Shown here one piece after another: positions 4,206-34,159 of a stretch of 64,000 nt of DNA. Both the position numbers and the translations under genes were made by a program. The stretch's first letter is position 1. Each line of letters opens with the position of its first letter. Below the pieces are notes generated by a model. It did not search any database. It had not been told where the DNA came from and saw only the letters and a program-made list of their open reading frames with translations. The stretch is from Takifugu flavidus (lineage: Eukaryota), in the NCBI RefSeq assembly GCF_003711565.1, contig NC_079534.1, positions 9,717,991-9,781,990 on the forward strand, written 5' to 3'.

Positions 4206-4258
4206 CTAAAATGGAGGCATGTCAAGTGAAGCCACAAGTGAAAAAGAAAGGACAGCTG
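4206..4258 (+). CDS. Repeat-gene candidate first coding exon (ATG at 4211; MEACQVKPQVKKKGQL).
   Basis: tttccag acceptor at 4200-4205. ATG at 4211. GTGAGA donor at 4259. Confidence 0.35.
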
Positions 4259-4404
4259 GTGAGAATATTTACGTCTGACAAAAAGTTACACACACATACC
4301 ACAAATGGCCAGTCTAAAAAATGATGATGCAATTGCAATATTGTGGATAATATGAATGCAACACACTTTCTTTCTCACAGTGTTATGTCTTTTACTTTTC
4401 TCAG

Positions 4405-4431
4405 CCTAAACCGCCTCCAAAGCCTGTCAAG
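4405..4431 (+). CDS. Repeat-gene micro-exon (PKPPPKPVK).
   Basis: ttttctcag acceptor. GTACTA donor at 4432. 27 nt. Resembles the PKP core of later modules. Confidence 0.35.
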
Positions 4432-6344
4432 GTACTAAAATAAAAACACAACTGTATATTCTTGCAAGTACTCATTTGTTATAGTGATTGTCGACATCTT
4501 TAGAAGACTTAATTTTTAGATTTAAAAAAGCAATCCGGGCTCGATGCATGTTTGGAGCCTCTTCAACCTGCTGACACTGTACGTTCCCGCTGGAAAACAC
4601 TACAGATCCTCATCAGGATTAACAATTAACAGATACAGTTATAGTGGGAAGTGAGGTATTAGGTCTTTTTTCTTTTATCTAAACTCGCTATTGTGAGCAG
4701 TGCTGTTGATTTAACATTTGAAAATTGTGCTACTGTTAGAGAGCAGGAAGGTGGAGAGAGAATGGGAAAGACAGGAGTCTTAAACTGAGTGTAGTGTTGG
4801 GATCATGACAGGAAAAGCTATAGAGTTGAGAGACATGGTACAAAGGAGGAACATATGTATTCTGTGTTTGGGAATCCAGGTTCGAAGCTTAAGAGCAGTG
4901 CTCAAGAGGTTTTATCATGGTGTAGAAGGAAATGGAAAAAGCACGAGTCATCTTGATGAGGGAGTTTCTTAGGAATGCTCTGGAGTTGAAAACAGTGTCA
5001 GATTGAGTGATGAGTTTGAAGCCAGAAATTGAAGATGTCCAGTTTAATCAGTGGTTCTGCTCCACTGTGTGTGTCTGTATGTGTCAGCTGCATGTGTTTG
5101 TGTGTATGTGAGAGAGAGACAGTGAGACAGAATGTTAGCAGTCTAAGGTCCTGCTGAAGCTCTTCTGGAGCTCTCTATGACTGCTCCCTTGTTTTCTAAT
5201 CTAACTGCCTGAAGCCTGCTGATTGGAAAGGAGAAAGAAACACTATTTTCTGTCCATCTGCATGACCAACTTTGCAATTAAACATGAACAATATATATGT
5301 AATAAAACAAACAACATTTAAGGGAGCTCTCGGCCACTGTGTCCATGCTTACTGCCAGTACTAAAACTTGTTGTGTGGAAAAAAGTACATAAGGAGGCTC
5401 TGTGGTAAAGAAATACAGAACCACTGGAGAAGGCAGCTGAAGAGTCTGTTATTCAACTAAGGAGTGAAACTTTGGGGAGACATGGGAGGCGTTGAGGTGG
5501 AGATGAATGTTAGGGGTGATGTGTGATAAAGGAGCCGTATTTTAGAGACACAGACACCAAGGAGAAGACAGGTAGCAGAGCTGAAAGGGGCGGAGATGAA
5601 GATGTTGAGATGTTTGTGAGTTACAAAGGTGGAGAAGCTCAAGAATGAATATATCAGAAGCGCAGCACATATTAGATGTTTGGAGATAGTCAGCAAGGGC
5701 AGACTGAGATTGTTCGGACATGTCCAGAAGAGTAACAGTGAATATAGGAATAAGGATATTGTAATTGGAACTGCAGGTAGGAGGCCAAGAGGAAGATGAA
5801 GGTGGAGGTTTATGGATGTAGGGAAAAAGACATGAATTTAATTAGTGAGGCAAGAGCATGCACAAAAAGGGTTGAGATAGAAACAGCAAGTCAGCTGTCT
5901 GTGACTGCTGACTGTGGTGTTTTATATGTCAGCATCCCTTCTAACCTGTTATAAAGAAGAAAATGTTAAAAAAAATAATAGGAACAAATATCTTTTAACA
6001 ATAAAAAGTGTTTTGCAAATTTAAAGATTTAATGTGAGACATTACATTATTTTTTAATACTCTTACCTTTTTTTGCCACTTTACAGGTTATTGTAGTTTC
6101 AAAACAATGTAAGAGAAAAGTGTCATCATCTTAACGTCCAGTGGCTCAACCCAGACTTAGAGAAAATGGGCAAATCATTAAAATATCAATATTTCAACAC
6201 GTTTTCATTCAACTGTTTGATCAGTAATTGAGTACTCCATGTGTCATGTCCATGTGTTTGTTTCTGTAAGTAAAGGTTGTCCTAAAGCAGCAGAAGGTTT
6301 TTGTTTTCAGCAGTTCTGTTAGTTTCTTTATTGTTTCTATGCAG

Positions 6345-6404
6345 GAACTGAAGGCATCACCCAGATACAGCGAAAGCAGAAGTGTTGAGGCTGAGAATTC
6401 AAAG
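6345..6404 (+). CDS. Repeat-gene exon, acidic/Ser module (ELKASPRYSESRSVEAENSK).
   Basis: ctatgcag acceptor. GTACAT donor. 60 nt. Ends in the ENSK motif shared with later modules. Confidence 0.45.
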
Positions 6405-9138
6405 GTACATGCACACACATCTCTTCTTTTGTTTTCTCTTCCTATTTTTTAGGATTTGAGGTTGATCTTTCTTCCTGTTCCAAATCAAAACAGAGAAAAC
6501 ATTGCATTTAGAAGTTCCTGACTCAGTGCAGAACTTTTCTCACCACTCTTACATGTCTGCCATTTTCTCTTTTCTTATGTTGTGTTGTAGAATGCACTGT
6601 GTGATATACTGCTAATGGGAATGTTTCAGTTGGAGAAAATGATGTTGTTCACTATAATGGTTATACTTATACTGTATTTAAATGTCAAAACAGGCTTAGT
6701 ATTGAAATGCTATGGGAACTTTACTATAATATATAGGTGAGAAAAATCCACTAAGAGATGGATAAAACCGTGGACTCAGTGTTAATGACTTTAAAATATC
6801 TATAGAACTCTAAATGACTATATCTGTAAGATAGGTGTAAACAGTGCAAATAAAAGTGTAGTGTATAAATTCTTTAGTTTTACAATGTTCAGATATATTG
6901 TAAAAATAAAAAAATGGATACATTTCATTTTTGTCACTGAAGAACATCTGTGTACTCCATTATCAAAGTTATGTGAATGTGAATGCCTTGTCAAACTGGC
7001 TCCTGGCATGCCCCACTTCCACCAAAGAGTCTCCAGGGCTGGTTCAGAGCCAATCCCTGACTGAGCACAGTTTCTTTCTTTCTCCACCATCCAAACCAGT
7101 TTCATCCTAGTTCCAAACAGCTTCCAGGCAAGCGCCATTTTCAAGCTCGGCAAGACAGGGGCCAGAGCTAAGAACCATTAACGCAGTAGGCTACATGGGC
7201 AGGGATACAGATTAAATCCACACACGGCAAAAGCTATAAACTGCTATTAAAACTACAACCAGCAGGTTGCAAAACTCATACAGTCATTTGATCTTGTTTT
7301 GCACTGATGTAATGACATGGGTCTGACTTTGCTTTGCTTTGCTCCTGGCATATGGAAATGCAAAGCGGTTCTTTAGAGGCACCGGGCTGGAACCAGTTAT
7401 GCACTGGCTCAAGCACCAGCACCAAAACTAGCATCAGGTTCTTTTTGGTGGAAAAGAGGTAGCAGTAAACAGGTGTGCTGGCATGTGCTACACCTGCTAT
7501 GAGTGCCTTCTATTGTAACAGTCATTTCGATTGAAATTGACTGAGAGTCGCAGCTGATATGTAAGGTTTATTATAAGGTTAATTTCTCCAGGTTGCAGAA
7601 TGACAATGAGCAGCGACTTTATTCATTCAGGCTTTACAGCACTGTGAAAAGTGTCCTGAGACATATAATAGACAGCATAATTTCACACTAAAGTGTATAA
7701 CTCCTCGCACGTGTTATCAGTCTCCTCCCTGGCTACGCCCTCATAAATGTACAAATTACTATAAACAAGGCCTCTGCACAATCGAAACAATTGAAACGAG
7801 CCTTGGATCTCAAAAGCAAGAAGAGGAACTTTACCAACTGTGAGTTGGAGACAGTCGCCAATGATGTGAAGGCAGAAAAGATTAATCTTTTTTGGCAGGC
7901 TGTCCTCTGGAATTAATAATAAGCGGAAGTTTTATTCTGAATCAAATCAGTTTCCATTTGAGAATTTGACGCACAACAAACACTGGTGTGTGCAGTTGTA
8001 ATGCAGTTGTAGGTCAGGCAAAACGTAAGGCTGATCAAGTAATTTGAACACCTTATGTGCATGTTTGATGACTTAAGGACTTTAAAAATGGGGGCATGTT
8101 GGAGAGACTGTGAGCAGCAAAAACACGTCATTAACTTCAACCACTGATGAATAATGATGCTGACTACAGAATTATACGTATGCTCAACAGCTGTCAGAGG
8201 GATTCAATTGTTGGTGTGTAGGTACACATACATAAATACAAAATACGTTGTTGTTTGTATATACACGCATGCATCTATTGCTCTGGTGTTCAAGATACTT
8301 TTACAAGGACGGCAGCAATCATTTTTGTTGATGGCTAAGTCTGCTTCCACTCTTGATATAAGTAATAAAATAATAATTGGCACGTGACTGAGGTGTATTT
8401 AAATGTTTTGAAGCTGTGTAACAATTAAATTTTTGTGGGTTTCATCATCATAGCATTGTTAATATTTTCATTATTGCACTTTTCATAACAAAGTTTAATG
8501 TTCTGTGATCTGCTGATTTCACTGTCCATTCATAACACCTCCTCACTAAGATAAAAGTTATTGTCCCCTTTGCCAGAGTTGTTCCAAGAAATGTCTTGAA
8601 TCACTCTTGTGTAAAGATTTCTTGCTAGGAATTTTTAGGCTAAGTCAGGAGCACCCTGAGAGGCCTTTAAAAAATTTTGTTAATCTGGGCGCAGGTTTTT
8701 ACCTGTGAAGTATGTTTGGTATATGTGAAGGAAGGAAGTGGCTTTAGTGCTGTGCGGTCTAACATTTTACACAAGGGACTGATGACATTGGTGGAATATC
8801 AAGAACTTGGATGATTGTTCAAATCACTTTTTTGTGTTATCTCTACTATTTCTCTACTGGATAATCATCCATTTTTAAAGATTGTTGTATCTTCCTCAAG
8901 GCTGGCAGAGAGCCGAACAGAGACCGAAGATGTGGGAAATAGAAAGTGGGAAGGCAACGGCAAAAACCAATAATGAAAATAATGCAGAACCAAAAGAACT
9001 ATTTATTTATTTTTTATTTAGGACTCATGTAAATGAGTTGGATATCTGCAGAGTAATATTGGTTCACTATTTTGTTTTTAATGTTGTAAGTGGCGTGACT
9101 ATCATTGTTATAAGGTAATTGCCTTTTTCTTGTTTTAG

Positions 9139-9201
9139 GAGAAGCTGAGTGTAATGAGTGAGCTGTCCACCAGCAAAGACAGTTTGTCTGGACATAACCA
9201 G
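9139..9201 (+). CDS. Repeat-gene exon, Ser module (EKLSVMSELSTSKDSLSGHNQ).
   Basis: ttgttttag acceptor. GTGAGC donor. 63 nt. Duplicated at 10439-10501. Confidence 0.55.
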
Positions 9202-9383
9202 GTGAGCTGCTCACTGTAATAGTTAGTGTTGTCCATGAAGGCGTTCATTCACCTTAACCCTAACCCTTAGAAACCACTAAATTTGCTTGTTCCTACACCT
9301 GTGATGGTATTGTCTTTCATCACATCTCTTACTGAAGAAAATACAATCTTCTGAAACTGAGCAGGTATTTATATTTCTTCCAG

Positions 9384-9455
9384 GATAAAGTTGGCTTATT
9401 TGGTCGGATGTTTAGGAAGTCTCCAAAACCACCAGAAAACAATCAAACCAACGAG
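9384..9455 (+). CDS. Repeat-gene exon, basic module (DKVGLFGRMFRKSPKPPENNQTNE).
   Basis: ttcttccag acceptor. 72 nt. The donor here is GCATGT (GC), whereas the paralogous exon at 10905-10976 has GTATGT. Confidence 0.45.
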
Positions 9456-9523
9456 GCATGTATTGACAGCATTCTGTGTGCATTGTACATTTTTGTATGT
9501 TCCCTTTTCATTGTCTCTTTTAG

Positions 9524-9586
9524 GATCAATGTTCTCTCCATGATAATATGTCAGGCAGTACTGACAGCTTGTCGGAAAACTCAAAG
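9524..9586 (+). CDS. Repeat-gene exon, Ser module (DQCSLHDNMSGSTDSLSENSK).
   Basis: tctcttttag acceptor. GTGAGC donor. 63 nt. Confidence 0.55.
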
Positions 9587-10438
9587 GTGAGCTCAAGAGA
9601 AGGTGCTGCATTGTTATTGGTGTCAGTGTTCAGTTGTCACTTTGTACTTATACATAACACTAAAAAAACGAATCAATGCCTTAATCCGACACTAACTGGA
9701 CAATTGACGTGCATGTGAACTCATTACTCTAACTACTATTGGAGTTTGCCGTATCCTAAGACAGCCAGATAATGCGATAAGAAATAGATTTGCTCTAGTG
9801 TACACCTTAATCAGAGTTAAACTAGACAATGCATGTGCACATGCTCCACAACCCCTGCGCTGGAGCATGACCAAAACATAAAAGATATTCCGGTCGCAAG
9901 AGTAGGCAACAAGGGATAGCACACATCTTATCTGCACATAAAGTGACACATTTATTACATATGAGATGAACAAATCTGTATGAGTTTCCTGCTTTCTCTT
10001 TTTTGAAAAGCCAGTCTGTTGGCTGACCCCATTTTATTACATGACACTGTAGGTCCACAGGAAGGGGGCCATACTAACCCTTATTTCACTTAAGCTATTT
10101 TTGTACACTGATAATCATGTATCTTTAAGGATTGTTGTATCTCCCTCAAGCTTCACAGACAGCTGAGCCCAGATTCGAAGATGGGGGAAATGGAAAGTGA
10201 AGAGGTACCCGCAAACAACAAGAAGGAAAAATAATGCAGAATCAAAAATGTAGCACTCATGCCATTTTGATTTATGTATGCAATAATAACTGCTGTAACA
10301 ATCAGTCGCCTTTCCATTCAAGACTACCTTTTTAATTTAGCCAGTGAGATATCTGCAGAGTAATATTGCTTTAGTATTTTATTTTCAGTGATGTCAATAA
10401 GTAGAATGACAAGTTAATTTTCACTTTTCTTGTTTTAG

Positions 10439-10501
10439 GAGAAACTAAGTGTAAAAAGTGAGCTGTCCACCAGCAAAGACAGTTTGTCTGAACATAACCA
10501 G
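10439..10501 (+). CDS. Repeat-gene exon, Ser module (EKLSVKSELSTSKDSLSEHNQ).
   Basis: Paralogue of 9139-9201 with the same splice signals. Confidence 0.55.
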
Positions 10502-10904
10502 GTGAGTAGCTCAATGTTATAGTTAGTGTTGTCCATGAAGGCGTTCATTCATCCACCTCACAGTAATTCATCAAGAACTAGTGTAGAGGTAACTGAACTG
10601 TTGAAGAAAGTGGAAGACATTTCACCTCTGATCTGAGCGGGTTCTATAGTTCTTGGTGTGGGTTCTAGAGTAGCTTGGTGCTCCTACTGGATCAAACGGT
10701 TGAATGGCTGTCATTGGAGTCGTTTTATTCTAGGTTGTATAATGTATAGTTGTGTCATTGAAGGTCATCGGCTAGTCAAAGGCCCTTAGAAACCACTAAA
10801 TTTGCTTGTTTCTACACCTGTGATGGTATTGTCTTTCATCACATTTCTTTTACTGAAGAAAATAAAATCTTCTGAAACTGAGCAGGTATTTATATTTCTT
10901 CCAG

Positions 10905-10976
10905 GATAAAGTTGGCTTATTTGGACGGATGTTTAGGAAGTCTCCAAAACCACCAGAAAACAATCAAACCAATGAG
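10905..10976 (+). CDS. Repeat-gene exon, basic module (DKVGLFGRMFRKSPKPPENNQTNE).
   Basis: Paralogue of 9384-9455 with a canonical GTATGT donor. Confidence 0.55.
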
Positions 10977-11044
10977 GTATGTAATGGCAGCATTCTGTGT
11001 GCATTATACATTTTTGTATGTTCCTTTTTTACTGTCTCTTTTAG

Positions 11045-11107
11045 GATCAACGTTCTCTCCATGATAATATGTCGGGCAGTAGTGACAGCTTGTCAGAAAA
11101 CTCAAAG
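11045..11107 (+). CDS. Repeat-gene exon, Ser module (DQRSLHDNMSGSSDSLSENSK).
   Basis: Paralogue of 9524-9586. AG acceptor and GTGAGC donor. Confidence 0.55.
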
Positions 11108-11474
11108 GTGAGCTCAAGAGAATGTGCTGCATTGTTATTGTGTCTGCTGAAAAGATGCATAGTGCCACCTAAAATGTGCATGTTAACATGCAGACTGATC
11201 ATGGAAATGTGTATGTTGACAGGGAAAAGGACTATTTTTTGGTGGCTTGCTCCGAAAAACTCCTAAAGAGGGAATACCTGTACAGGTAAAGATTTATGCA
11301 CAATTCTAGCTATCTATTAGCTATTCCTAGCTTCTATCTGAGTAGCTAATATAAATTAACCTCTATTCAAGGTTAAAGCGTCACTGCAAACACATCAATA
11401 ATACAGTAATGACTGAGTGTTTTGACAGCAAAATCACTGAAATAAGAATACCAGAATAATATGTTACTAAGATA

Positions 11475-12957
11475 CCGTATTTTCCGCACTATAAGGTGCA
11501 TTTAAAACACTGAGATTTTCTCAAAAATCGACAGTGTGCCTTATAATATGGTGCGCCTTGTGTGTGGACTGAGTTCCAAAATCTGCTGTGTGCCTTTGGT
11601 GGGTGCACTATGGTAAATGCTCTGCACATCGATTAGCGGCACGCCTATGCGTAAGGACCCCGTAAAATTACACCGGTGAAGCAACACGCGTATGAGGCTC
11701 ACTTTTAACTGCAGGCCGTCGAATATGCGGCTGAAAATGGCAATCGAGCAGCTGCAAGACATTTTAATATGAATGAGTCCATGGTCAGGAAGTGGAGAAA
11801 TCAAGAAAGTGAAGTGCACCAAGTGAGGAAGACGAAGCTGAGTTTCCAAACAAAGCAAGGTGGCCCGAGCTGGAAAACCGAGTGGAACAGTGGGTTGTGG
11901 AACAGCGAACAACCGGAAGGGGCGTCGCTACTGTCACCATTTGACGAAAGGCCAAAACGATTGCTGAAGAAATGGACATTGAGCACATCCAAGGAGGACC
12001 GTCTTGGTGTTTTCGCTTTATGAGGAGGCGGCATTTCTCTATACGCGCGAGGACAACTGTGGCGCAACGGCTGCCCGCGGATTTCCAGGAGAGGGTGGCC
12101 ATCTTCCTCACCTACTGCCGCTCCAAGATAACCGGCAAAAACATCGTGCCCAGCCACATCACCAACATGGATGAGATCCCGCTGATTTTTGACATCCCTT
12201 TGACCCACACAGTGGAGAAAAAAGGGACCAGCATGGTGGTGATACGCAAGATGGGCCATGAGAAGTCGTCGTTCACCGTGGTTCTCGGCTGCCATGGAAA
12301 CGGACAGAAATTGCCATCAATGGTGATTTTCAAGAGAAAGACGTTGCCGAAAGAAGCGTTTCTTGCCAGAGTTGTGGTCAAGGCAAATTAAAAGGGCTGG
12401 ATGGACGAAAGAAAATGAAAAAGTGGCTGAGGGAAGTTATGTGGGAACCGGGCTTTTAAAGTCACGTTGCTTGCTGTGGGAGCGCTGGATGACGGAAGGC
12501 AAACACTCCTTCACAAAGACTATGAGGCAGCAGCGGGCAAGTTATGCCACCATATGCGGGTGGATTGTAGACGCATGGGCTATGATACCGTCTTCATGTA
12601 AGAGCTTGTAAGAGCTTTCACAAAAGCCGGTATCAACGTTGAAGCGGAACCGGTAGGTGAGTCTGATTCAGATGATGAAGAAGAGGAAGTCAGGATATTG
12701 GAAATTGAAATAGCGCAGCTGTTTAATTCAGATACAGAAGATGAAAACTTTGATGGTTTTGTGGTGGAAGAATGAATATTTTGTTCAATAAATGTGTCAA
12801 AACTCACTGTTTTACTTCTGTTTTCGTTTTTTACTGTATGTTTTAGCATGCGCCTAATAATACGGTGCGCCTTATGTATGGCTTAAGTGCAGAAATAAAC
12901 CCCATAATTGAGACTCCACCTTATAACCCGGTGCGCCTTATGGTGCGGAAAATAAGG
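11475..12957 (+). mobile_element. pogo/Tigger-like DNA transposon, copy 1. About 1.48 kb with TA target-site duplications (TSDs). The transposase is degraded (frameshifted HTH-CENPB plus DDE).
   Basis: Terminal inverted repeats (TIRs) ccgtattttccgcactataaggtgca and tgcgccttatggtgcggaaaataagg. Internal ORF fragments include AAENGNRAAARHFNMNESMVRKWR (CENP-B-type HTH), HITNMDEIPLIFD and MGHEKSSFTVVLGCHGNGQKLP (pogo DDE motifs). Lies in an intron of the repeat gene. Confidence 0.7.

Positions 12958-13357: not shown

Positions 13358-13420
<63 letters not shown>
13358..13420. repeat. (GATA)n microsatellite.
   Basis: About 16 perfect GATA units. Confidence 0.95.
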
Positions 13421-25899: not shown

Positions 25900-25986
25900 G
25901 TGAGAGGTAGAATGAAAATCAAAATACAAAATCGAGATACAAATGTCATCAGTTGCAGGATTCACTGACTATTTTTTTGTTTGTAG

Positions 25987-26055
25987 GATAAAAATATTTT
26001 TAGCAACATTTTTAAGAAGCCACAGAAACAAACACTGGATGCTGCAGCAGGGAAG
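25987..26055 (+). CDS. Repeat-gene exon, basic module (DKNIFSNIFKKPQKQTLDAAAGK).
   Basis: tttgtag acceptor. GTGACT donor. 69 nt. Confidence 0.55.
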
Positions 26056-26139
26056 GTGACTAGCTAAATTTGAGCTAATGTAGCTCTATTGAGTGATGTT
26101 GCACACAATGTTAGTTATTGTCTTTTTTGCTGGATTGAG

Positions 26140-26211
26140 GAGCTGGAGGTGAAGTCTGAAAATGAGTTGTCTGGTAGCAATGAGAAGCTGTCGGATGCAA
26201 CTGTCTCAAAG
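26140..26211 (+). CDS. Repeat-gene exon (ELEVKSENELSGSNEKLSDATVSK).
   Basis: AG acceptor. GTACAG donor. 72 nt. First exon of tandem unit 1. Confidence 0.55.
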
Positions 26212-26632
26212 GTACAGCAATCTTTCTCTCACACCCACACACAAACACTCACAAGCATGCACACCTACATCCATTCCCATAACCCAATCCTGAAAGTGGT
26301 ACAGAGAGACCAGGAATTAGACTGGTCCACACTGGCCGTGGGTAGGGCTGAGATGGTTGGTGCAGAGAATCTGGGTTCTCAAGGCCACAAAAGCCCTGTC
26401 TGCTCACTCCATCAGTTTTGCAACATTTGTATGAATGTGACCAGAGATTATAGAGCTACAATTTTCTACTTCTATCAGTCTTATCAATAAATACAAATGA
26501 ACTTCTTCCATTAGCAGGCTGATGGTTGCACCTTGCTGCACAGTGACTGTATGTATATTCAGGAGGACTGTCTTTGATTGTACATTGACATTTTATCCTG
26601 TTATAAAATATTTGTTTTGTCTGTCTTGTCAG

Positions 26633-26707
26633 GAGAAAGGTGGAAGCTTGTTCAGCGGTCTTTTGAAAAAGACTCCCAAACCATCTGAGAAAACATCAGA
26701 TTTTGCT
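26633..26707 (+). CDS. Repeat-gene exon, basic module (EKGGSLFSGLLKKTPKPSEKTSDFA).
   Basis: cttgtcag acceptor. GTATTT donor. 75 nt. Confidence 0.5.
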
Positions 26708-26798
26708 GTATTTCATGCTTATTTGCTATGCAGTGAGCGTTTTTTCATGTGTAATGTGCCATTCTCTTTTTCATGAGACTTTTCTCTTTGTATTTCAG

Positions 26799-26885
26799 AA
26801 CAGAGAGGCCCTGAGAGAGCTCTCAGCAAGCAATGAGGACTTGACTGCAAGCGATGATGACTTGTCAGAAAAAAGCAACACCAAG
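26799..26885 (+). CDS. Repeat-gene exon, acidic module (NREALRELSASNEDLTASDDDLSEKSNTK).
   Basis: tatttcag acceptor. GTGAGG donor. 87 nt. Confidence 0.55.
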
Positions 26886-26966
26886 GTGAGGGGCAGAATG
26901 CAGCAAAATCGGGACACAAATGTCTTCAGTTGCAGGATTCACGGACTTTTTTTGTTTTGTTTGTAG

Positions 26967-27035
26967 GATAAAAATATTTTTAGCAACATTTTTAAGAAAC
27001 CACAGAAAAAAGCATTGGATGCTGCAGCAGGGAAG
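26967..27035 (+). CDS. Repeat-gene exon, basic module (DKNIFSNIFKKPQKKALDAAAGK).
   Basis: tttgtag acceptor. GTGACT donor. 69 nt. Confidence 0.55.
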
Positions 27036-27119
27036 GTGACTGGCTAAATTTGAGCTAATGTAGCTCTATTGAGTGATGTTGCACACAATGTTAGTTATTG
27101 TCTTTTTTGCTGGATTGAG

Positions 27120-27191
27120 GAGCTGGAGGTGAAGTCTGAAAATGAGTTGTCTGGTAGCAATGAGAAGCTGTCGGATGCAACTGTCTCAAAG
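27120..27191 (+). CDS. Repeat-gene exon (ELEVKSENELSGSNEKLSDATVSK).
   Basis: Identical to 26140-26211. First exon of tandem unit 2. Confidence 0.55.
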
Positions 27192-27612
27192 GTACAGCAA
27201 TCTTTCTCTCACACCCACACACAAACACTCACAAGCATACACACCTACATCCATTCTCATAACCCAATCCTGAAAGTGGTACAAAGAGACCAAGAATTAG
27301 ACTGGTCCAAACTGGCCGTGGGTAGGGCTGAGATGGTTGGTGCAGAGAATCTGGGTTCTCAAGGCCACAAAAACCCTGTCTGCTCACTCCATCAGTTTTG
27401 CAACATTTGTATGAATGTGACCAGAGATTATAGAGCTACAATTTTCTACTTCTATCAGTCTTATCAATAAATACAAATGAACTTCTTCCATTAGCAGGCT
27501 GATGGTTGCACCTTGCTGCACAGTGACTGTATGTATATTCAGGAGGACTGTCTTTGATTGTACATTGACATTTTATCCTGTTATAAAATATTTGTTTTGT
27601 CTGTCTTGTCAG

Positions 27613-27687
27613 GAGAAAGGTGGAAGTTTGTTCAGCGGTCTTTTGAAAAAGACTCCCAAACCATCTGAGAAAACATCAGATTTTGCT
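27613..27687 (+). CDS. Repeat-gene exon, basic module (EKGGSLFSGLLKKTPKPSEKTSDFA).
   Basis: Paralogue of 26633-26707. Donor is GTAATT. Confidence 0.5.
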
Positions 27688-27779
27688 GTAATTTCATGCT
27701 TATTTGCTATGCAGTGAGCGTTTTTTCATGTGTAATGTGCCATTCTCTTTTTCATGAGACTTTTCTCTTTGTATTTCAG

Positions 27780-27866
27780 AACAGAGAGGCCCTGAGAGAG
27801 CTCTCAGCAAGCAATGAGGACTTGACTGCAAGCGATGATGACTTGTCAGAAAAAAGCAACACCAAG
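27780..27866 (+). CDS. Repeat-gene exon, acidic module (NREALRELSASNEDLTASDDDLSEKSNTK).
   Basis: Identical to 26799-26885. Confidence 0.55.
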
Positions 27867-27947
27867 GTGAGGGGCAGAATGCAGCAAAATCGGGACACAA
27901 ATGTCTTCAGTTGCAGGATTCACGGACTTTTCTTGTTTTGTTTGTAG

Positions 27948-28016
27948 GATAAAAATATTTTTAGCAACATTTTTAAGAAACCACAGAAAAAAGCATTGGA
28001 TTCTGCAGCAGGGAAG
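27948..28016 (+). CDS. Repeat-gene exon, basic module (DKNIFSNIFKKPQKKALDSAAGK).
   Basis: Paralogue of 26967-27035. Confidence 0.55.
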
Positions 28017-28096
28017 GTGACTGGCTAAATTTGAACTAATGTAGCTCTATTGAGTGATGTTGCAGTGATAGTTATTGTCTGTTTTGTTGGACTGAG

Positions 28097-28168
28097 GAGC
28101 TGGAAGTGAAGACTGAAAATGAGTTATCTTGTAGCAGTGAGAAGCTGTGGGATGCAAATGTCTCAAAG
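28097..28168 (+). CDS. Repeat-gene exon ([24 protein letters not shown]).
   Basis: AG acceptor. GTACAA donor. 72 nt. Followed by a (CT)n(CA)n microsatellite. Confidence 0.5.
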
Positions 28169-28181
28169 GTACAACAATCTT

Positions 28182-28182
<1 letters not shown>

Positions 28183-28262
<80 letters not shown>
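28183..28262. repeat. (CT)n(CA)n compound microsatellite.
   Basis: About 9 CT units followed by about 31 CA units. Confidence 0.95.
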
Positions 28263-28266
<4 letters not shown>

Positions 28267-28775
28267 TTGACACGTGGACACACAAACACTCACAGGCATA
28301 CACACCAACATCCATTCCAACAACCCAAACTGGCAAGAGATAAATAGAGAAAAGGAATTAGACTGGTCCAAACTGGCCCTGGGTAGGGCTGAGATGGTCG
28401 GTGCAGGGAATGTGGGCTCTCAAAGCCACAAAAACCCTGTCCATCAGTTTTGCAACATTTGTATGAATGTGACCAGAGATTATAGATCTATACGATTTTC
28501 TACTTCTATCACAGTTTTATCAAAAAAGACAAATGAACTTCTTCCATTAGCAGGCAGATGGTTGCATCTTCTTGCACATTCACTGTATCTGCATTCAGGA
28601 GAATTATCTTTGATTGTAAATCAAGTTTGTTCAGTGGACTCTTGAAAAAGACTTCCAAACTATCTGAAGAGACATCAAATTCTACTGTAATTTGGTCTTC
28701 TTTTGCTGTGCAGTGTATTTTATTTTATGGTGTTTATATAAAAAGAGCAGCCTACACATATTTTTTCTTCTTCAG

Positions 28776-28847
28776 GAGAGAGAGGGACAGAGAGTGCTCT
28801 CAGCAAGCAATGATGACCTGATGGCCAGCGATGAAAACACCACCAAG
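28776..28847 (+). CDS. Repeat-gene exon, diverged acidic module (EREGQRVLSASNDDLMASDENTTK).
   Basis: cttcttcag acceptor. GTGAGG donor. 72 nt. Confidence 0.45.
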
Positions 28848-28911
28848 GTGAGGAGCAGAATGCTGCAAATTTAGGATACAAATGTCTCCAGTTGGGACAT
28901 TCACTGACTTT

Positions 28912-28980
28912 TTTCCTGCAGCATAAAAATATTTTTAGCAACATGTTTAAGACGCCACAGAAACAAGTATGGGATGCTGC
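28912..28980 (+). CDS. Repeat-gene exon, basic module (HKNIFSNMFKTPQKQVWDAAAGK).
   Basis: cctgcag acceptor. GTGACT donor. 69 nt. Confidence 0.5.
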
Positions 28981-29069
28981 CGCAGGAAAGGTGACTGGCT
29001 AAATTTGAACTAGTATAGTTGTAATAAGTGATTATCTTAATAATGGTAAATGTGTTTTGTTGGATTGAG

Positions 29070-29141
29070 GAGCTGGAGGTGAAGACTGCAAATGAATTAT
29101 CTGGTAGCAATGAGAAGCTGTCAGATGCCAATGCTCCAAAG
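29070..29141 (+). CDS. Repeat-gene exon (ELEVKTANELSGSNEKLSDANAPK).
   Basis: AG acceptor. GTACAA donor. 72 nt. Confidence 0.5.
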
Positions 29142-29537
29142 GTACAACAATCATTTTTATTAAGCACACCTGGGTTTACACACAAGAGACAGACACACAC
29201 ATCAATACCTTCATTCCTGCAACACTTTCCGTCATGTAGAAAAGAAAAAAGTCTGGCCCAGACAGGCCCTGGATATGGGCTCAGAGGGTCAGTCCAGAGG
29301 ATGTGGGCTGTCAAGGTCACAAAAACTCCCGAGCGTGGACCTTGCAGCCCAGATGTTACTTTGCATGAGAGAAACCTTGCTGACAAAGTGTAGATCAAGG
29401 AGTTACTTTATTGTACACTTTTATAGGTTCACAAGATGGGAACACATTTAACTATACATTTAACTTTTGTTTTTAATCATTTCAAACAATTTCAAATATT
29501 TTTCTTATATTTTAAAATGATAAAAATGCATTTTAAG

Positions 29538-29603
29538 GAAAAAAGAGGCGGCCTTGCTGGCATCTTCATAAGATCATCCAGTATTGACAACCTGTTGGAA
29601 GAG
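29538..29603 (+). CDS. Repeat-gene exon (EKRGGLAGIFIRSSSIDNLLEE).
   Basis: ttttaag acceptor. GTTAGT donor. 66 nt. Confidence 0.4.
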
Positions 29604-30040
29604 GTTAGTGTACACAAAGATTACCACATTGACATATTTCCAAAAGCTTTTATAGTTTTGTTTCACATGAACAGTCAATGTTATTCAATAGTTAATGTTA
29701 GGTCAAATGAGATTTGTAATGGCAAGATACAGTTAATTTAAATATCAATACATATAAAACTAGAAACAAAGTAGAGAGTGCAGACCTCTGCCAAGATGGC
29801 CATTTGCCCAATTTGTAATGGCTTTTTAATGAAATCTTCAGGAAATTTTGATAATGGGCCAAGGAATAGCTCATTAAGCTCATTTTGCTGACGTTCTGGA
29901 TTCCACTGTTATATAACCTTGTATTAATACTGCCTATATACCTATGCTAACTATACTAAGAGTGTAAGGAAATGACTTGCTTGGCGGAGTTCTGTGCTCT
30001 AAATATTGTTTTTTCATTAACTGTTTCTTTCTGTTTTCAG

Positions 30041-30109
30041 GAGAAAAGTGTTTTTAGTGGTATGTTTAAGAAGTCTCATAAACCATCAAAGGAGGCAACA
30101 TCAGATGAG
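30041..30109 (+). CDS. Repeat-gene exon, basic module (EKSVFSGMFKKSHKPSKEATSDE).
   Basis: ctgttttcag acceptor. GTGTCA donor. 69 nt. Confidence 0.55.
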
Positions 30110-30216
30110 GTGTCATAATTGCTCATTCATATAAAACTTGAACATTTCCCCTTTTATTTATTCATTTATTGGTTTATTCAAATTTTCATTCATTTTATTG
30201 ATTGTTGCCTGTTTAG

Positions 30217-30288
30217 GAATCAAACACAGGCAAGGAGAAGAGCATGTCTGCCAGTTGTGAAAGTTTGTCAGAAGCAACAGTGTTAAAG
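30217..30288 (+). CDS. Repeat-gene exon (ESNTGKEKSMSASCESLSEATVLK).
   Basis: gtttag acceptor. GTACTG donor. 72 nt. Confidence 0.5.
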
Positions 30289-30375
30289 GTACTGATTGTG
30301 ATTTAACTTCAGTTTTCATCGCTGATATGCTATGAATTATTCACTACAAATGAATAATTTTGTTTTTTTTGTCAG

Positions 30376-30447
30376 GAGAAGACTGTAGGGCTTGTAGGTT
30401 ATTTTAAAAAGTCTCCTAAACCAGCTCCTCGCACAATAGTTACTAAG
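30376..30447 (+). CDS. Repeat-gene exon, basic module (EKTVGLVGYFKKSPKPAPRTIVTK).
   Basis: ttttttttgtcag acceptor. GTGATC donor. 72 nt. Confidence 0.55.
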
Positions 30448-30531
30448 GTGATCAAAGAAACACATTTGATTTGCCCTTGTGTGTAATTTTAATCATCTGT
30501 AAAAGCTCTTTTATAGTGGTGCAAAATTCCT

Positions 30532-30591
30532 TGCTTTCCAGGATCCTCTCAGTGAGATGGAGGTCCACTCCAGCTCTGACAGCCTTACAGA
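30532..30591 (+). CDS. Repeat-gene exon (DPLSEMEVHSSSDSLTETAE).
   Basis: ctttccag acceptor. GTGATG donor. 60 nt. Confidence 0.45.
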
Positions 30592-30599
30592 AACTGCAG

Positions 30600-31060
30600 A
30601 GGTGATGAAATTCAGAGTTGTGTGAGAGTAGAGCTGGAGTCAGCCTCCCGTTCCTGGACAGGGAGCTGGTTCCATAGCAGGGGGGCCTGATAGCTAAATG
30701 CGCGGCCCCCCATTTTACCTTTAGAGACTGTGGGAACCACCCAGTATTGGAGCGGTCTATTGCATCACTAAGGCATCACTAGCTCCTCCAGGTAGGATGG
30801 AGCTAGGCCTCTGAGGACCTTGCAGGTCAGAAGAAGGGTTTTAAAAATTATTCTAAATTTAATTGGCAGCCAATGAAGAGACGCCAGTACAGGAGTTATG
30901 TGATCTCTTTAGTCAATACCTGTCAGAACTCTAGCTGCAGCATTTTGGATCAACTGGAGGCTTCTTTAAGAGTTGTTTGGACACCCTGATCATAAAGAAT
31001 TACAATAGTCCAGCCTGGAAGTAAAAAATGCATGGACTTGCTTTTCAGCACGTCGAGTGT
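30600..31060 (-). mobile_element. L2-type LINE 3' fragment (minus strand) in an intron of the repeat gene.
   Basis: Reverse complement matches the 3' ORF and tail of the L2 at 22140-22560 (..LQLIQNAAARVL.., ..PLVVPRVS..LWNQLPV..). Confidence 0.7.
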
Positions 31061-31124
31061 TTGTGTTGTGGTTTATGGTCGCTTGTCATTCTCAGTTTTA
31101 TTAAAAGTCCATCTTTGTTTGCAG

Positions 31125-31196
31125 GAAAGTGTTAATTTAGAGAGACTGGAACAAGGCCGGCTGAGTAGGAGTAGAACAATCAAGAAGAAAAAGCGA
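31125..31196 (+). CDS. Linker exon (ESVNLERLEQGRLSRSRTIKKKKR).
   Basis: tttgtttgcag acceptor. GTGAGT donor. 72 nt. Contains a basic KKKKR patch. Confidence 0.45.
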
Positions 31197-31298
31197 GTGA
31201 GTTGTTTTTCTTTACATTGGAAGGGAAATAAAACAGTAATATATTTCTGTTGTAACTTGCTTGGTCTCACTAATCTGTATTTGCTTACCTTTTTTCAG

Positions 31299-31352
31299 GT
31301 TGTTTCATTCCGACTAAAAAAAACTCTTTATAGGGTACCCAAGGCTGACCAG
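31299..31352 (+). CDS. Linker exon (VVSFRLKKTLYRVPKADQ).
   Basis: ttttttcag acceptor. GTAGGC donor. 54 nt. Confidence 0.4.
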
Positions 31353-31554
31353 GTAGGCCTTTTTTGTTTATTCCCATTTATGCACCTCTTCTTATGTAGC
31401 TTTAGTATTATGCTAAATATTTATTTTTGTTAATCCAATGAAATTATCAATTGAATTGTTTAACATTTAAACACAGAGTGTAAAGTAAATTCATGTTTCT
31501 TTTACTTGTTGCACTGTTTTAGGTGAGATTTGCTTCTGTTTTTCCTCTCCTCAG

Positions 31555-31626
31555 ATTTCAGAAAAGATACCTCTTATTGAAGAGGCTGTTGAGCTGCAGG
31601 AACTGACCCAAGCAACATCTAAAACA
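31555..31626 (+). CDS. Linker exon (ISEKIPLIEEAVELQELTQATSKT).
   Basis: cctctcctcag acceptor. GTGAGT donor. 72 nt. Confidence 0.45.
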
Positions 31627-31714
31627 GTGAGTATACTTTAAAGTGGAAGCTAAAAAGAAGAAGACACAGGAGAATATTAAACAGATGTAAAGATTGTGTT
31701 ACTGTGTACTTGAG

Positions 31715-31789
31715 GAGAGTACAGTGGAGGTCCAGCCTATTGAAATGGCATCCTATCCATCTGAGGACAATCCAATGGAATCTGAGGAG
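31715..31789 (+). CDS. Linker exon (ESTVEVQPIEMASYPSEDNPMESEE).
   Basis: AG acceptor. GTATGT donor. 75 nt. Confidence 0.4.
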
Positions 31790-31883
31790 GTATGTTTTAT
31801 GCTGCTGTTTATTTGGAACACTAGCCAAATGTGATTGCACTTCTAAAAACAATCTTTTTGCTGACCAAATCCTCTGCTTTTAG

Positions 31884-31923
31884 GAAGGTGATGAGTTGAT
31901 GCAGTGGTGGAACACAGTCAAAG
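31884..31923 (+). CDS. Exon (EGDELMQWWNTVK), 40 nt, ends in phase 1.
   Basis: ctgcttttag acceptor. GTTTGT donor. Its phase is compatible with the next exon. Confidence 0.5.
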
Positions 31924-32022
31924 GTTTGTATGTGTGTTTATTTAAATATTAACCTGGATTGTTTTTACTCTTTATATCTTAAGTGCCACACAGTGGTTTG
32001 ATTGTTTTCTATTGACATCCAG

Positions 32023-32071
32023 GTTGGGCAGAATGGAATGAGACCAATAATTTTCCTGACAATGAGGAAAT
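32023..32071 (+). CDS. Exon (GWAEWNETNNFPDNEE), 49 nt, ends in phase 2.
   Basis: catccag acceptor. GTAAGT donor. Its last two nucleotides (at) plus the g at 32199 form an ATG/Met codon, in frame with the APOL exon. Confidence 0.5.
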
Positions 32072-32198
32072 GTAAGTATATTTGTTTTTATTTTATTTTA
32101 TTTCAAGTTATTTTATTTTGTTTTACTTTTAGCTCTATTATTTCAAAGATTGCGACAAATATTTGTACGTTTTGGCTATGATTTTCCCAACTGTGTAG

Positions 32199-32613
32199 GG
32201 CTTTGGAGCAGGCCGCAGATCGTGTTTACATGGCAGCCTGTCTATTTGTCCGCCTGTTTAACCAGCGTGGAGCATCTCTGCAACATCGTATCCTGGAGCT
32301 TTTGGCCCTGGCAGATGCAGCAGATCAATTTCATAAGAAAACTGTTACAGCTGCTGTGGGTGGAGGTGTTGCTAGTGTTGCAGGCAGTATTGCAACAATT
32401 ACAGGCCTCATTCTGGCGCCTTTTACGTTTGGGGCGTCTATTATAGTCACCGCAGTAGGGATCAGTGTTGCGACTGCGGGCAGCATCACTTCAGCAACAG
32501 CCAACATTACGGATGCTGTTCACTCTAATATGGACCGCAAGAAGTTGGAAAAAATGATCCAGGACTACCAGGATGAGATCAACGTCATCCGAGAGTGTTT
32601 GGAGTTTGTGCAG
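32199..32613 (+). CDS. APOL-like exon encoding a Gly/Ala-rich membrane hairpin (ALEQAADRVYMAACLFVRLFNQRGASLQHRILELLALADAADQFHKKTVTAAVGGGVASVAGSIATITGLILAPFTFGASIIVTAVGISVATAGSITSATANITDAVHSNMDRKKLEKMIQDYQDEINVIRECLEFVQ).
   Basis: ctgtgtag acceptor at 32191-32198. Donor cag|GTAGGA at 32614. Homologous to residues about 45-165 of the APOL-like ORF at 23-1036. Confidence 0.7.
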
Positions 32614-32743
32614 GTAGGAGTTGGTTAATTATCCTCAAGTTACATCAAGTAAAGGCATATAATGTATATATACATGTACATTCACATGTATAATTTTATG
32701 TAATGAGTGTGTGTTCAGATATAATCTTTTGTGCCTCTTGCAG

Positions 32744-34159
32744 GCAGGAATGGACACCTTACAGGAATGGGATTTTGATAAATACTCCCAAAGTGCTGCC
32801 AAAAAAGCTCTGAACCACAACATCAAGCATGTGATGAAGGAGGGTGGCCGTGCTGGAAAAGCTTTGATGATAAACACAGATAAACTCATAAGCACTGTGC
32901 AGATTTTAGGCACTGCTGGAGGAGCAGCAAAGGCTGTGCAGGCCATTAGTGTCACAACAGGGGTCATGTCCGCGTTATTCCTGGCTCTGGATGTTTTCTT
33001 TCTTGCCAAGGACTCCCATGAACTCCGCAAGGGTGCCAAAACCAAGTTTGCCAACAAAATAAGGGATGTTTGTAAAGAGCTTCAAGATGGCCTTCTGGAA
33101 TTGAACAAAGTGAAAACACAGCTGCAGAAAACAATGGATGGCATTGAGGTGGAGGAGTATGAAGAGATCCATGAGGTAGAGGTGGAAGTTGATGATGATT
33201 TAGCATCTGACCCAAAGAAGCTGGCTGAATTGGAACAAGAGTTGGATCTCCTGGAGGAAAAACTGAACAAGAAGACAGAGGAAGATGAGAAAAAGTATAA
33301 TGAGATGAAAAAAGATAAGGGAAACACTGCTAAGGGCACAAAAACTGGAGAGGACAAAGACAAAGTGGACGACCAAGATGGAAATAAGGAAACTTTGAAG
33401 ACAAAACACAATAAAGAAAAAAAGCTTGACTCAAAATTTGAAATTACAGATGAGAAAAATGAGCAGAAAATTGAAAAGGTCAATTTGGCAAAAGTCGAAG
33501 TTGTAAAAGACAAATCTCCGAGAGAAAGCAAAACAGACAAAGAGACAGAGAACTCTGTTACTGCTGAAAAAAAAAAACAGGGGAGCAGGAATGACACAAA
33601 CAAAGAAAAGGAGAAAATTAAGACCAAAGAACATGATAAATATGCACAGTATGAGTCAAAACAAGAACAACATGGAAGAGCACATTTAAAGAGAGAAAGT
33701 GAAAGGAGTAAGAGCAGAAGAGATGCAGAAAGAGAAAGCCATACAAAGAAAGAAGTGGATCATGGGAGAAAGGTAGAGAGACGAGCAATGGACGGAAGAG
33801 CTGAAATGTCAAAGAAAAGTGAAGAGACGGAGAACAGTGGGACACAGAGGGAAGATGACTTTAGAAAAAAGTCACATCTGAGTCAAATGAGACGAGATCA
33901 CCCTGACCACGAATCAACAAACCATAGAGAGGAGTATAAGAGACATCACACAAGGACAGCAGTGGCACGTGAAGAGTCAATGGAGGCCAGAGTGAGAGGT
34001 GGGAATGGGAGTATCAGGAAGCATTCTGGAAGCACACAGGATAAAGAGAAGGTGGAGCAGAGGAAGAGCAGAGATGGTGAGAGAGACAAAGAGGGAAGAC
34101 GCAGTCACAGAGGATCTCGAGGACGATCCAGCATCCTAGAAGACGGCCTATATATTTAA
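32744..34159 (+). CDS. APOL-like terminal exon. It starts AGMDTLQEWDFDKYSQSAAKK, contains FLAKDSHELRKGAKTKFANKIRDV, and is followed by a charged K/E/R/D-rich low-complexity tail of about 330 aa. Stop at 34157-34159.
   Basis: cctcttgcag acceptor at 32743. In frame with the previous exon across a 130-nt intron. Homologous to the C-terminal half of the ORF at 23-1036, then extends beyond it with the charged tail. Confidence 0.65.
   Translation, partial: AGMDTLQEWDFDKYSQSAAKKALNHNIKHVMKEGGRAGKALMINTDKLISTVQILGTAGGAAKAVQAISVTTGVMSALFLALDVFFLAKDSHELRKGAKTKFANKIRDVCKELQDGLLELNKVKTQLQKTMDGIEVEEYEEIHEVEVEVDDDLASDPKKLAELEQELDLLEEKLNKKTEEDEKKYNEMKKDKGNTAKGTKTGEDKDKVDDQDGNKETLKTKHNKEKKLDSKFEITDEKNEQKIEKVNLAKVEVVKDKSPRESKTDKETENSVTAEKKKQGSRNDTNKEKEKIKTKEHDKYAQYESKQEQHGRAHLKRESERSKSRRDAERESHTKKEVDHGRKVERRAMDGRAEMSKKSEETENSGTQREDDFRKKSHLSQMRRDHPDHESTNHREEYKRHHTRTAVAREESMEARVRGGNGSIRKHSGSTQDKEKVEQRKSRDGERDKEGRRSHRGSRGRSSILEDGLYI

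Follow-up and report, generated by a model that had tools for sequence, protein, structure and literature searches.

A modular array of mini-exons probably joined to an ApoL domain in a teleost apold1a-type gene of Takifugu flavidus

The stretch of DNA analysed here (hereafter the window) comprises 64,000 nucleotides of Takifugu flavidus (NCBI RefSeq assembly GCF_003711565.1, contig NC_079534.1, positions 9,717,991 to 9,781,990 of the forward strand) and has the features of teleost genomic DNA, with a GC content of about 40%, microsatellites and open reading frames (ORFs) of transposons. Its plus strand harbours 43 exon segments (3886..34159) that join into an open frame of 4512 nt encoding a protein of 1503 amino acids (aa). 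The translation of this coding sequence (CDS) is identical at every residue (100%) to the RefSeq protein XP_056913620.1 (P0138), likewise of 1503 aa and labelled there as 'titin homolog isoform X5 [Takifugu flavidus]'; apart from its first two residues, which are supplied by 7 coding nt at the end of an upstream exon, the whole of P0138 was also placed exactly on the window. The product begins with a short Lys/Pro-rich N-terminus (MEAC..KKK..PKPPPKP), continues with an array of repeated modules spanning about 740 aa, and contains an ApoL domain preceded by some 890 aa in all and followed by a tail of about 294 aa rich in Lys, Glu and Arg. We consider it likely that the locus is the T. flavidus orthologue of the teleost gene apold1a (si:rp71-1g18.13), a single gene of about 30 kb in which an array, possibly serving as a cytosolic multivalent arm, is joined to an ApoL domain.

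The exons of the gene are listed below with positions in the window and the strand in brackets; the tandem units A to E, to which some of the exons belong, are specified further on.

3886-3892 (+): coding part of exon 1 in RefSeq isoform X5, ATGAGCG followed by the donor gt (Met-Ser and one extra base)
4206-4258 (+): exon 2, 53 nt, (A)KMEACQVKPQVKKKGQL, holding the conserved MEAC start Met at 4211
4405-4431 (+): exon 3, 27 nt, PKPPPKPVK, the first of 37 phase 0-0 exons
6345-6404 (+): exon 4, 60 nt, ELKASPRYSESRSVEAENSK
9139-9201, 9384-9455 (GC donor), 9524-9586, 10151-10204 (+): exons 5-8
10439-10501, 10905-10976, 11045-11107, 11223-11285 (+): exons 9-12
9139..11285 (+): repeat unit present in two copies within exons 5-12, EKLSV.SELSTSKDSLS / DKVGLFGRMFRKSPKP / DQ.SLHDNMSGS.DSLSENSK
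14735-14788, 14863-14931 (EKSIFGGMLKKTPKP...), 15264-15341 (+): exons 13-15
16409-16483 (+): exon 16, EKGGSLFSGLLKKTPKP, in tandem unit A
16576-16662 (+): exon 17, NREALRELSASNEDLTASEDDLSEKSNTK, in tandem unit A
25987-26055 (+): exon 18, DKNIFSNIFKKPQK, in partial unit B
26140-26211 (+): exon 19, ELEVKSENELSGSNEKLSDATVSK, in partial unit B
26633-26707, 26799-26885, 26967-27035, 27123-27191 (+): exons 20-23, tandem unit C
27613-27687, 27780-27866, 27948-28016, 28097-28168 (+): exons 24-27, tandem unit D
28776-28847, 28922-28990, 29070-29141 (+): exons 28-30, tandem unit E
29538-29603, 30041-30109, 30217-30288, 30376-30447, 30542-30601 (+): exons 31-35
31125-31196 (..RTIKKKKR), 31299-31352 (VVSFRLKKTL..) (+): non-repeat linker exons 36-37
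31555-31626, 31715-31789 (ESTVEVQPIEMASYPSEDNPMESEE; conserved internal Met at 31745) (+): non-repeat linker exons 38-39
31884-31923 (+): exon 40, 40 nt, EGDELMQWWNTVK-G, entered in phase 0
32023-32071 (+): exon 41, 49 nt, WAEWNETNNFPDNEE-M, entered in phase 1 and ending with the AT of a split Met codon
32199-32613 (+): exon 42, 415 nt, carrying the ApoL domain's first half and, in it, a hydrophobic hairpin rich in G/A/S/T/I/V and free of acidic residues
32744-34159 (+): exon 43, 1416 nt, carrying the remainder of the ApoL domain, with a second hydrophobic segment, KDSHELRKGAKTKF
Within exon 43, after the ApoL domain and up to 34159 (+): acidic/leucine-rich helix, K/E/R-rich tail of about 294 aa, C-terminal EDGLYI and stop

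Exons 3-39 (4405..31789) constitute an uninterrupted run of 37 exons that are phase 0-0, measure 27-87 nt and have lengths divisible by 3, all with an AG acceptor and all with a GT donor save for the GC donor at 9455. Translation of the plus strand between 9 and 31 kb reveals dozens of short open stretches with two recurring kinds of motif, which a crude scan for splice sites delimits as AG...GT segments with lengths in multiples of 3. Mini-exons of this kind had been proposed in an earlier note made from the letters of this DNA alone, and they are indeed there, as is the junction it described between the 40-nt and 49-nt exons (entry phases 0 and 1) and the exon at 32199, which they join in frame with a Met codon split as AT/G. 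Phase 0 is held by all 37 array and linker exons into the ApoL exons. The CDS of the RefSeq isoform starts at the ATG at 3886, one exon before exon 2 with its conserved Met of MEAC. All exons of the array are symmetric, so that whichever of them are spliced out, the frame is kept. Predicted isoforms do vary in this part of the protein: among those of Osmerus apold1a (X1-X7) and of Solea, stretches of 45, 140 and 179 aa within the array are present in some and missing from others, which is what cassette splicing of symmetric exons would be expected to yield, and the T. flavidus RefSeq model itself carries the label 'isoform X5'. Two local peculiarities of splice sites may be added here. The twin exons encoding the same peptide DKVGLFGRMFRKSPKPPENNQTNE have different donors, GC (GCATGT) at 9455/9456 versus GT (GTATGT) at 10976/10977, both of which are used by RefSeq; and at a NAGNAG acceptor (27120-27123, gag/GAG/CTG) isoform X5 takes the downstream AG, leaving one Glu fewer than in the sister exons at 26140 and 28097.

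The array is built of alternating basic-hydrophobic (KEKGGxFSGMFKKSPKP) and Ser/acidic (ELSxSxDSLSEN) exons, paired into a repeat of about 45 aa. Regular expressions describing the two kinds matched 14 basic and 14 acidic motifs, all of them on the plus strand between 9.1 and 30.3 kb and none on the minus strand, against means of 0.22 and 0.04 matches in 50 mononucleotide shuffles; the two alternating module families of the earlier note are therefore real. The net charge per exon ranges from 0 to +5 (mostly +2 to +4) in the basic-hydrophobic and from -1 to -6 in the Ser/acidic kind, and the array as a whole contains 16% Ser, 13% Lys, 12% Glu and 3.8% proline, with a net charge of -14. Sites of the form S/T-x-x-D/E are in modest excess (37 versus 26.9 +/- 4.2 in shuffles). 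A 45-position profile built from 27 aligned module pairs has the consensus KEKGGxFSGMFKKSPKx(about 10)LxxxxELSxSxDSLSEN, in which positions F7, K16, S37 and L41 are invariant or nearly so. The number of detectable module pairs is about 14 in both Takifugu and Solea and 4-11 in the other full-length orthologues. The order of the modules nearest to the ApoL domain (29538-31789) is kept in other percomorph orthologues; for exons 31-35 it reads KKGGLAGIF.RSSS.DNLL / EKSxFSGMFKK / ...SLSE / EKTGGLxGFFKKSPKPAPRS / DPLS...SDSLTE. No Pfam family was matched by the array or by array-only orthologues; the name 'FAM21/CAPZIP', which UniRef gives to one relative (P0162), was not reproduced by the Pfam scan and was discarded.

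The C-terminal part of the gene is easier to place. The ORFs 32203-32628 and 32711-34159 match the Pfam ApoL family (PF05461; 1.7e-22 and 7.2e-9, respectively), and the spliced product reaches 115.4 bits (4.4e-33) with a cutoff of 25.9, covering profile positions 49-297 of 298; the full 1503-aa protein scores 113.5 bits, and ApoL is its sole Pfam domain. The gene is a member of the ApoL family, which agrees with the identification of the exons at 32199-34159 as APOL-like in the earlier note, and the long Lys/Glu/Arg tail reported there exists as well, with a length of about 294 aa (17% K, 15% E and 10% R). The hairpin region (VTAAVGGG...ITSAT) contains no acidic residue, and Kyte-Doolittle windows of at least 1.4 cover VTAAVGGGVASVAGSIATITGLILAPFTFGASIIVTAVGISVATAGSITSAT and a second segment, AVQAISVTTGVMSALFLALDVFFLAK (fragment positions 218-243). 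The K/E/R tail is fast-evolving, and the C-terminal DGLYI (34142-34156) nevertheless persists, in the form DGL[YDNH]I, among 29 fetched relatives; it may be a docking motif or interaction site. Another such site may be provided by the helix past the ApoL domain (KKLAELEQELDLLEEKL), modelled with a predicted local distance difference test (pLDDT) score of about 75 in an otherwise poor AlphaFold model. As a side observation, a phmmer search of the hairpin (32262-32573) against the Protein Data Bank gave weak matches (E ~4e-4) to Bacillus Nhe component L1 (NheB; 6tao) and Vibrio MakE (6w08), both of them ClyA-type alpha-pore-forming toxins, and Pfam gave a weak SseC match over the hydrophobic hairpin (E = 0.004); the hairpins concerned may be alike in composition or may be remotely related.

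With the linker and ApoL part as the query, 438 relatives were retrieved; the best of them come from teleosts, are 65-90% identical in this part and go by the names 'apolipoprotein L domain containing 1a', 'apold1a' or 'si:rp71-1g18.13'. The nomenclature is far from uniform: orthologues are variously called apold1a, apolipoprotein L1, L3 or L6, and the automatic labels attached to the array are scattered among 'titin homolog', 'nucleolar protein dao-5-like', 'claspin-like' and 'futsch'. The label 'titin homolog' is a misleading automated best-hit name; an identity with titin was considered and rejected, as the Pfam scan of the full protein gives ApoL only, without any Ig, fibronectin-III or kinase domain. 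Full-length teleost models start with ME[AQS]C...KPEVKKKPKPPKPPPKP, contain the ApoL domain and end with ...DGL[YDN]I, their sizes being 1627 aa in Solea, 1703 aa in Sardina ('apold1a X2'), 1533 aa in Osmerus and 1467 aa in Dunckerocampus; an Oncorhynchus model (1463 aa) likewise combines array and ApoL domain and has different termini. The proteins of Sardina pilchardus (XP_062386586.1), Osmerus eperlanus (XP_062338498.1) and Solea senegalensis (XP_043885659.1) share with that of Takifugu the ME.C start, the array, the linker exons, the ApoL domain, the charged tail and the terminal DGL.I, whereas the number and kind of modules differ, a four-exon EKGGS/NREAL/DKNIF/ELEVK unit having been amplified in the Takifugu sequence. 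All these proteins are predicted ones whose names tell little.

When the array alone was used as the query, we found another T. flavidus model, P0121 (D4764_15G0009390), the exons of which occur verbatim in the window, together with array-only and array-plus-ApoL proteins of other fishes. The 45-position profile, run against 1.84 billion cluster representatives, recovered 100 proteins, P0138 among them; 30 of the 100 are named. All but three of the named ones are from teleosts (Gymnothorax, Albula, Anguilla, Aldrovandia, Sardina, Alosa, Osmerus, Oncorhynchus, Neoarius and percomorphs), a spread that takes in elopomorphs, clupeiforms, osmeriforms, salmonids, a catfish and percomorphs. The three invertebrate matches (P0175, P0176 and P0192) are partial, covering positions 9-19 in two nematode proteins and 9-36 in a cestode one, and were dismissed as unrelated short motifs. 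Judging from these searches, the repeat looks teleost-restricted. Most of the long representatives also bear an ApoL domain, and the module consensus is kept from elopomorphs to percomorphs and in at least two lineages of ApoL paralogues.

One such paralogue lies directly upstream of the main gene. Its last exon (23..1036, plus strand) matches Pfam ApoL at 3e-37 and ends with ...DEIDRIKKAIKKNVEN and a stop, and it belongs to the 'MDRYDNLDLDLECDGGG...' family (e.g. Synchiropus XP_053740240.1), members of which in other fishes combine the 45-aa module pair described above with an ApoL domain. Given the position of this exon, two array-plus-ApoL genes are head-to-tail neighbours here. The paralogue departs from the main gene in its N-terminus, in its ApoL domain, which is only about 42% identical, in a last exon that is not split and in an end reading ..IKKAIKKNVEN without the long K/E/R tail. 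In a protein of the apold1b type (P0113), an analogous array is present that differs in sequence, being made of GVMQKVNPFKS and SSSESL modules.

The relationship to the human protein is more distant. APOLD1, also called VERGE, is an endothelial early-response protein. The human APOLD1 sequence that we used as a bait is 100% identical to a database protein; among the best 120 of its 137 matches, the named ones are exclusively amniote APOLD1 and the rest unnamed Logan contigs. The amniote APOLD1 proteins among these 120 mostly measure about 200-310 aa, and the 1503-aa product falls outside a compact size of about 250-310 aa. In a BLASTP comparison with human APOLD1 the main gene aligned at 32% identity over 118 aa, corresponding to the hairpin (E = 1e-17), with the second half of the fish domain left unaligned, and the hairpin of the upstream paralogue proved slightly closer (39% over 122 aa). 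With mammalian APOLD1 the fish protein shares an ApoL-type hydrophobic hairpin without acidic residues and flanking helices, whereas human APOLD1 (about 250-280 aa) lacks both the N-terminal array and the long charged tail. It is the database naming that suggests orthology to APOLD1; besides the upstream paralogue and the transposon-rich DNA downstream, the window offers no neighbouring genes informative on synteny with the APOLD1 locus. The match to PF05461 is shared with the APOL1-6 family, which includes the pore-forming, trypanolytic APOL1, and a signal peptide is absent here.

Mammalian APOLD1 is located at endothelial cell contacts and Weibel-Palade bodies and modulates autophagy-dependent secretion (PMC9973481). 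According to a review, the hairpin of APOLD1, which lacks acidic residues, becomes inserted at neutral pH, and pore formation is unlikely (PMC11726835). APOLD1 has been traced to an amniote ancestor living some 300 Myr ago in a study that did not treat fish genes (PMC8557400). For the Takifugu gene, a 'pore-forming' label would be an assumption. Our search of the literature returned no paper on apold1a or apold1b and none discussing the array-plus-ApoL layout, although the clone name rp71-1g18.13 does occur in two papers. The architecture, which had not been recognised from described APOL proteins in the earlier note, is accordingly absent from the searchable literature, but it is already present in databases and common to teleosts, and its novelty was overstated.

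The way in which the array has grown can be read from a self-comparison of the DNA. A four-exon unit of 981-986 bp, EKGGSLFSGLLKKTPKP / NREALRELSASNEDLTASDDDLSEKSNTK / DKNIFSNIFKKPQKK / ELEVKSENELSGSNEKLSDATVSK, occurs in copies at 16039-17179, 26263-27243 and 27243-28227 that are 95-97% identical, introns included; an older copy (28278-29156) shows 76-85% identity, and a partial one starts at 25828. A second unit is present in two copies, at 9041-9624 and 10348-11144. The tandem units and the intron that separates them are the following.

16039..17179 (+): tandem unit A (about 985 bp), with exons 16-17, a pseudo-exon at 16744-16811 and an intact exon at 16892-16963 (ELEVK...)
17180..25824 (+): large intron with transposon debris, i.e. 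LINE ORF fragments on both strands and CT-rich and poly-C repeats
25825..26262 (+): partial tandem unit B, with an intact 75-nt exon at 25825-25899 (weak acceptor) and exons 18-19
26263..27243 (+): tandem unit C, exons 20-23
27243..28227 (+): tandem unit D, exons 24-27
28278..29156 (+): tandem unit E, older (76-85% identical to C and D), with a decayed basic exon at 28621-28692 and exons 28-30

Within the lineage of Takifugu, part of the array arose by tandem duplication of this four-exon unit of about 985 bp. Between unit copies, exons and introns are equally similar (0.970 versus 0.969 in one comparison, 0.835 versus 0.828 in another), as befits recent unequal crossing-over or gene conversion. 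Unequal crossing-over had been suspected before, and the four to five tandem units, the youngest alike in exons and introns, support it. In units C and D all eight exons retain open frames, AG/GT sites and lengths that are multiples of 3. Two copies have decayed, one (16744-16811, 68 nt) by a 1-nt deletion that shifts the frame and the other (28621-28692) by loss of the AG acceptor, and the intact exons 16892-16963 and 25825-25899 are left out of isoform X5. The tandem array is divided by the intron of about 8.9 kb (16963 to 25825), which is occupied by remnants of LINEs and by simple repeats: ORF fragments of LINE reverse transcriptase and endonuclease lie at 18777-22335 on both strands, a CT-rich tract at 22791-23210 and a poly-C tract at 22931-22966. 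A fragment of a pogo/Tigger-like transposase ORF lies in another intron (11972-12391, plus strand). Simple repeats within the gene include a perfect (CA)32 at 28199-28263, 30 nt past exon 27, and a (GATA)16 at 13358-13420 in the intron between 11.3 and 14.7 kb, both of which could serve as polymorphic markers or as substrates for misalignment within the array.

As to the biological role of such a protein, the ApoL hairpin would anchor it in a membrane, and both the array and the C-terminal tail are probably cytosolic, because a signal peptide is absent and the flanks are very polar. The array would constitute a disordered, multivalent arm, the basic-hydrophobic motifs of which (Phe/Leu/Met plus Lys) might bind anionic membranes or surfaces of partner proteins. 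The Ser/acidic motifs might be phosphorylated and act as phospho-switches tuning this binding, and the valency would be governed by cassette splicing together with changes in copy number; this scheme does not entail the formation of pores. The basic modules are reminiscent of the MARCKS effector domain, which contains short clusters of Phe/Leu/Met and Lys/Arg with phosphorylatable Ser nearby; no sequence homology is claimed, however, and lipid binding by FSGMFKKSPKP is something we purely infer. A bolder proposal, which we put forward tentatively and with more doubt than conviction, is that the 45-aa pair represents an undescribed, teleost-restricted repeat that was joined to an ApoL domain before the splits between apold1a and apold1b and between the tandem paralogues, turning a small membrane-hairpin protein into a large, multivalent scaffold in the cytosol, with a valency adjustable through splicing and copy number. 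If this were true, fish ApoL proteins would differ mechanistically from mammalian APOLD1 and APOLs, and their array would be subject to rapid birth and death of exons.

Several points weigh against a single apold1a-type gene with a functional cytosolic arm. The Takifugu model of the fused gene is a RefSeq prediction, the transcript that unites modules and ApoL being cyprinid, and some annotations split the locus into array-only models (Syngnathoides P0122 with 729 aa, Cottoperca P0123, Hippocampus P0127/P0128 and the old T. flavidus P0121) and ApoL-only models (P0003 and P0009, beginning in or just before the linker exons). Recently duplicated exons are conserved no better than their introns, and it does not follow that every extra copy is functional. 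Topology, disorder, lipid binding and phosphorylation are all deduced from composition, and two AlphaFold2 models of the ApoL part (alignments of 26 and 131 sequences) have mean pLDDT values of 48 and 51, with about 25 in the hairpin, which is too low for folds to be compared. The split models could mean two transcription units, an array gene ending after the ESTVEV exon, through polyadenylation or a retained intron, and an ApoL gene driven by an internal promoter and starting at Met 31745 (MASYPSEDNP...), the fusion being an artefact of read-through in gene prediction; in keeping with this, the Hippocampus zosterae proteins P0127/P0128 end with ...ESEE plus VCVRRHH, having been read into the intron that follows the ESTVEV exon, and EMA[AS]YP retains its Met across teleosts. 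We nevertheless regard two separate units as very unlikely. A single locus is indicated by the overlap of the array-only and ApoL-only models in the linker exons (VVSFRVKK, IPLIEE.VE.QEL, ESTVEVQP.EMA.YP). Phase 0 runs through all 37 array and linker exons into the ApoL exons, and no poly(A) signal was found in the 94-nt intron after 31789. Full-length fused models account for at least 14 fetched proteins from several orders. Moreover, a cyprinid RNA-seq contig (L001, 3094 nt) contains N-terminal modules and the ApoL domain in a single uninterrupted ORF of 679 aa with untranslated sequence on both sides, and in the transcript contig L003 the linker exons continue into the ApoL domain; the Logan contig L002 begins with an adapter at the internal Met and says nothing about the 5' end. 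The early stop of P0121 is explained by the splicing-in of the pogo-like transposon ORFs (11972-12391) and of the frameshifted pseudo-exon 16744-16811. The proposal of one gene with the array fused to ApoL and tail, already made in the earlier note, is thus supported by the RefSeq model, by full-length teleost models and by the cyprinid contig, and we accept the fused transcript as real for one isoform at the least. Alongside the long form, shorter ones arising from the internal start or from early termination may well occur; as the exclusive explanation, two units are unlikely. The internal Met itself, at 31745 in EMASYPSEDNP (exon 39), is one at which, or just upstream of which, several database models start, and an ApoL-only isoform may use it as an alternative start.

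It is also conceivable that most of the array is evolutionary noise, with only a few ancestral modules being functional and the recent Takifugu copies being neutral passengers, perhaps skipped in splicing or tolerated because the tail is disordered. The equal identity of exons and introns between units fits this, as do the two decayed copies, the two intact ones absent from isoform X5 and the variation from 4 to 14 in the number of detectable module pairs among full-length orthologues. We consider it unlikely, yet not negligible, for units C and D are intact in all eight exons and the module consensus persists from elopomorphs to percomorphs and in at least two ApoL paralogue lineages; besides, equal exon and intron identity is also expected of very young duplicates or of gene conversion, and because copies this young show no difference, the comparison is a weak test, powerless to detect selection on single copies. 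A mechanical role can be imagined as well. Arrays of symmetric mini-exons are familiar from the PEVK region of titin and from the 54-bp exons of collagen, and by analogy with them the array described here has one module per small exon, a shared phase, tandem exon duplication and possible cassette splicing, whereas sequence and context are unrelated, with two alternating exon types here joined to a membrane hairpin. In the extreme, the array might work as an elastic entropic spring of the PEVK kind and thus tether mechanically instead of serving as a binding scaffold, as the layout of the titin PEVK gene (many symmetric small exons encoding one charged low-complexity module each), the richness of the array in K, E and S and the RefSeq name 'titin homolog' might suggest. 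This appears extremely unlikely to us: the name is an automated label, Pfam detects ApoL and no titin domain, proline makes up just 3.8% of the array, and the near-invariant F7, K16, S37 and L41 resemble short linear motifs more than bare composition.

With the locus read as one apold1a-type gene, what appears new is an unstudied and unnamed repeat family on ApoL hairpin proteins, the gene itself being already known as a RefSeq prediction. Teleosts have a clade of ApoL-domain genes with a large, conserved, modular N-terminal array that lies outside Pfam. The fish apold1a/b genes bear on the amniote dating of APOLD1 (PMC8557400) and add an unexpected architecture, and with the zebrafish orthologue si:rp71-1g18.13 the function of array and hairpin is open to a direct genetic test. 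The locus also offers a clean, datable case of exon-array growth by unequal crossing-over, in which near-identical units are being born while pseudo-exons are dying.

Downstream of the gene, no host gene is evident in the part of the window between 34 and 64 kb, which is rich in transposons (Tc1/mariner and LINE elements in the window). A Tc1/mariner-type transposase ORF of 372 aa lies at 39908-41026 on the minus strand, with a partial second copy at 38278-38628. The same 124-aa ORF occurs twice, at 37005-37379 and 38635-39009 (minus strand), which points to a duplicated transposon block.

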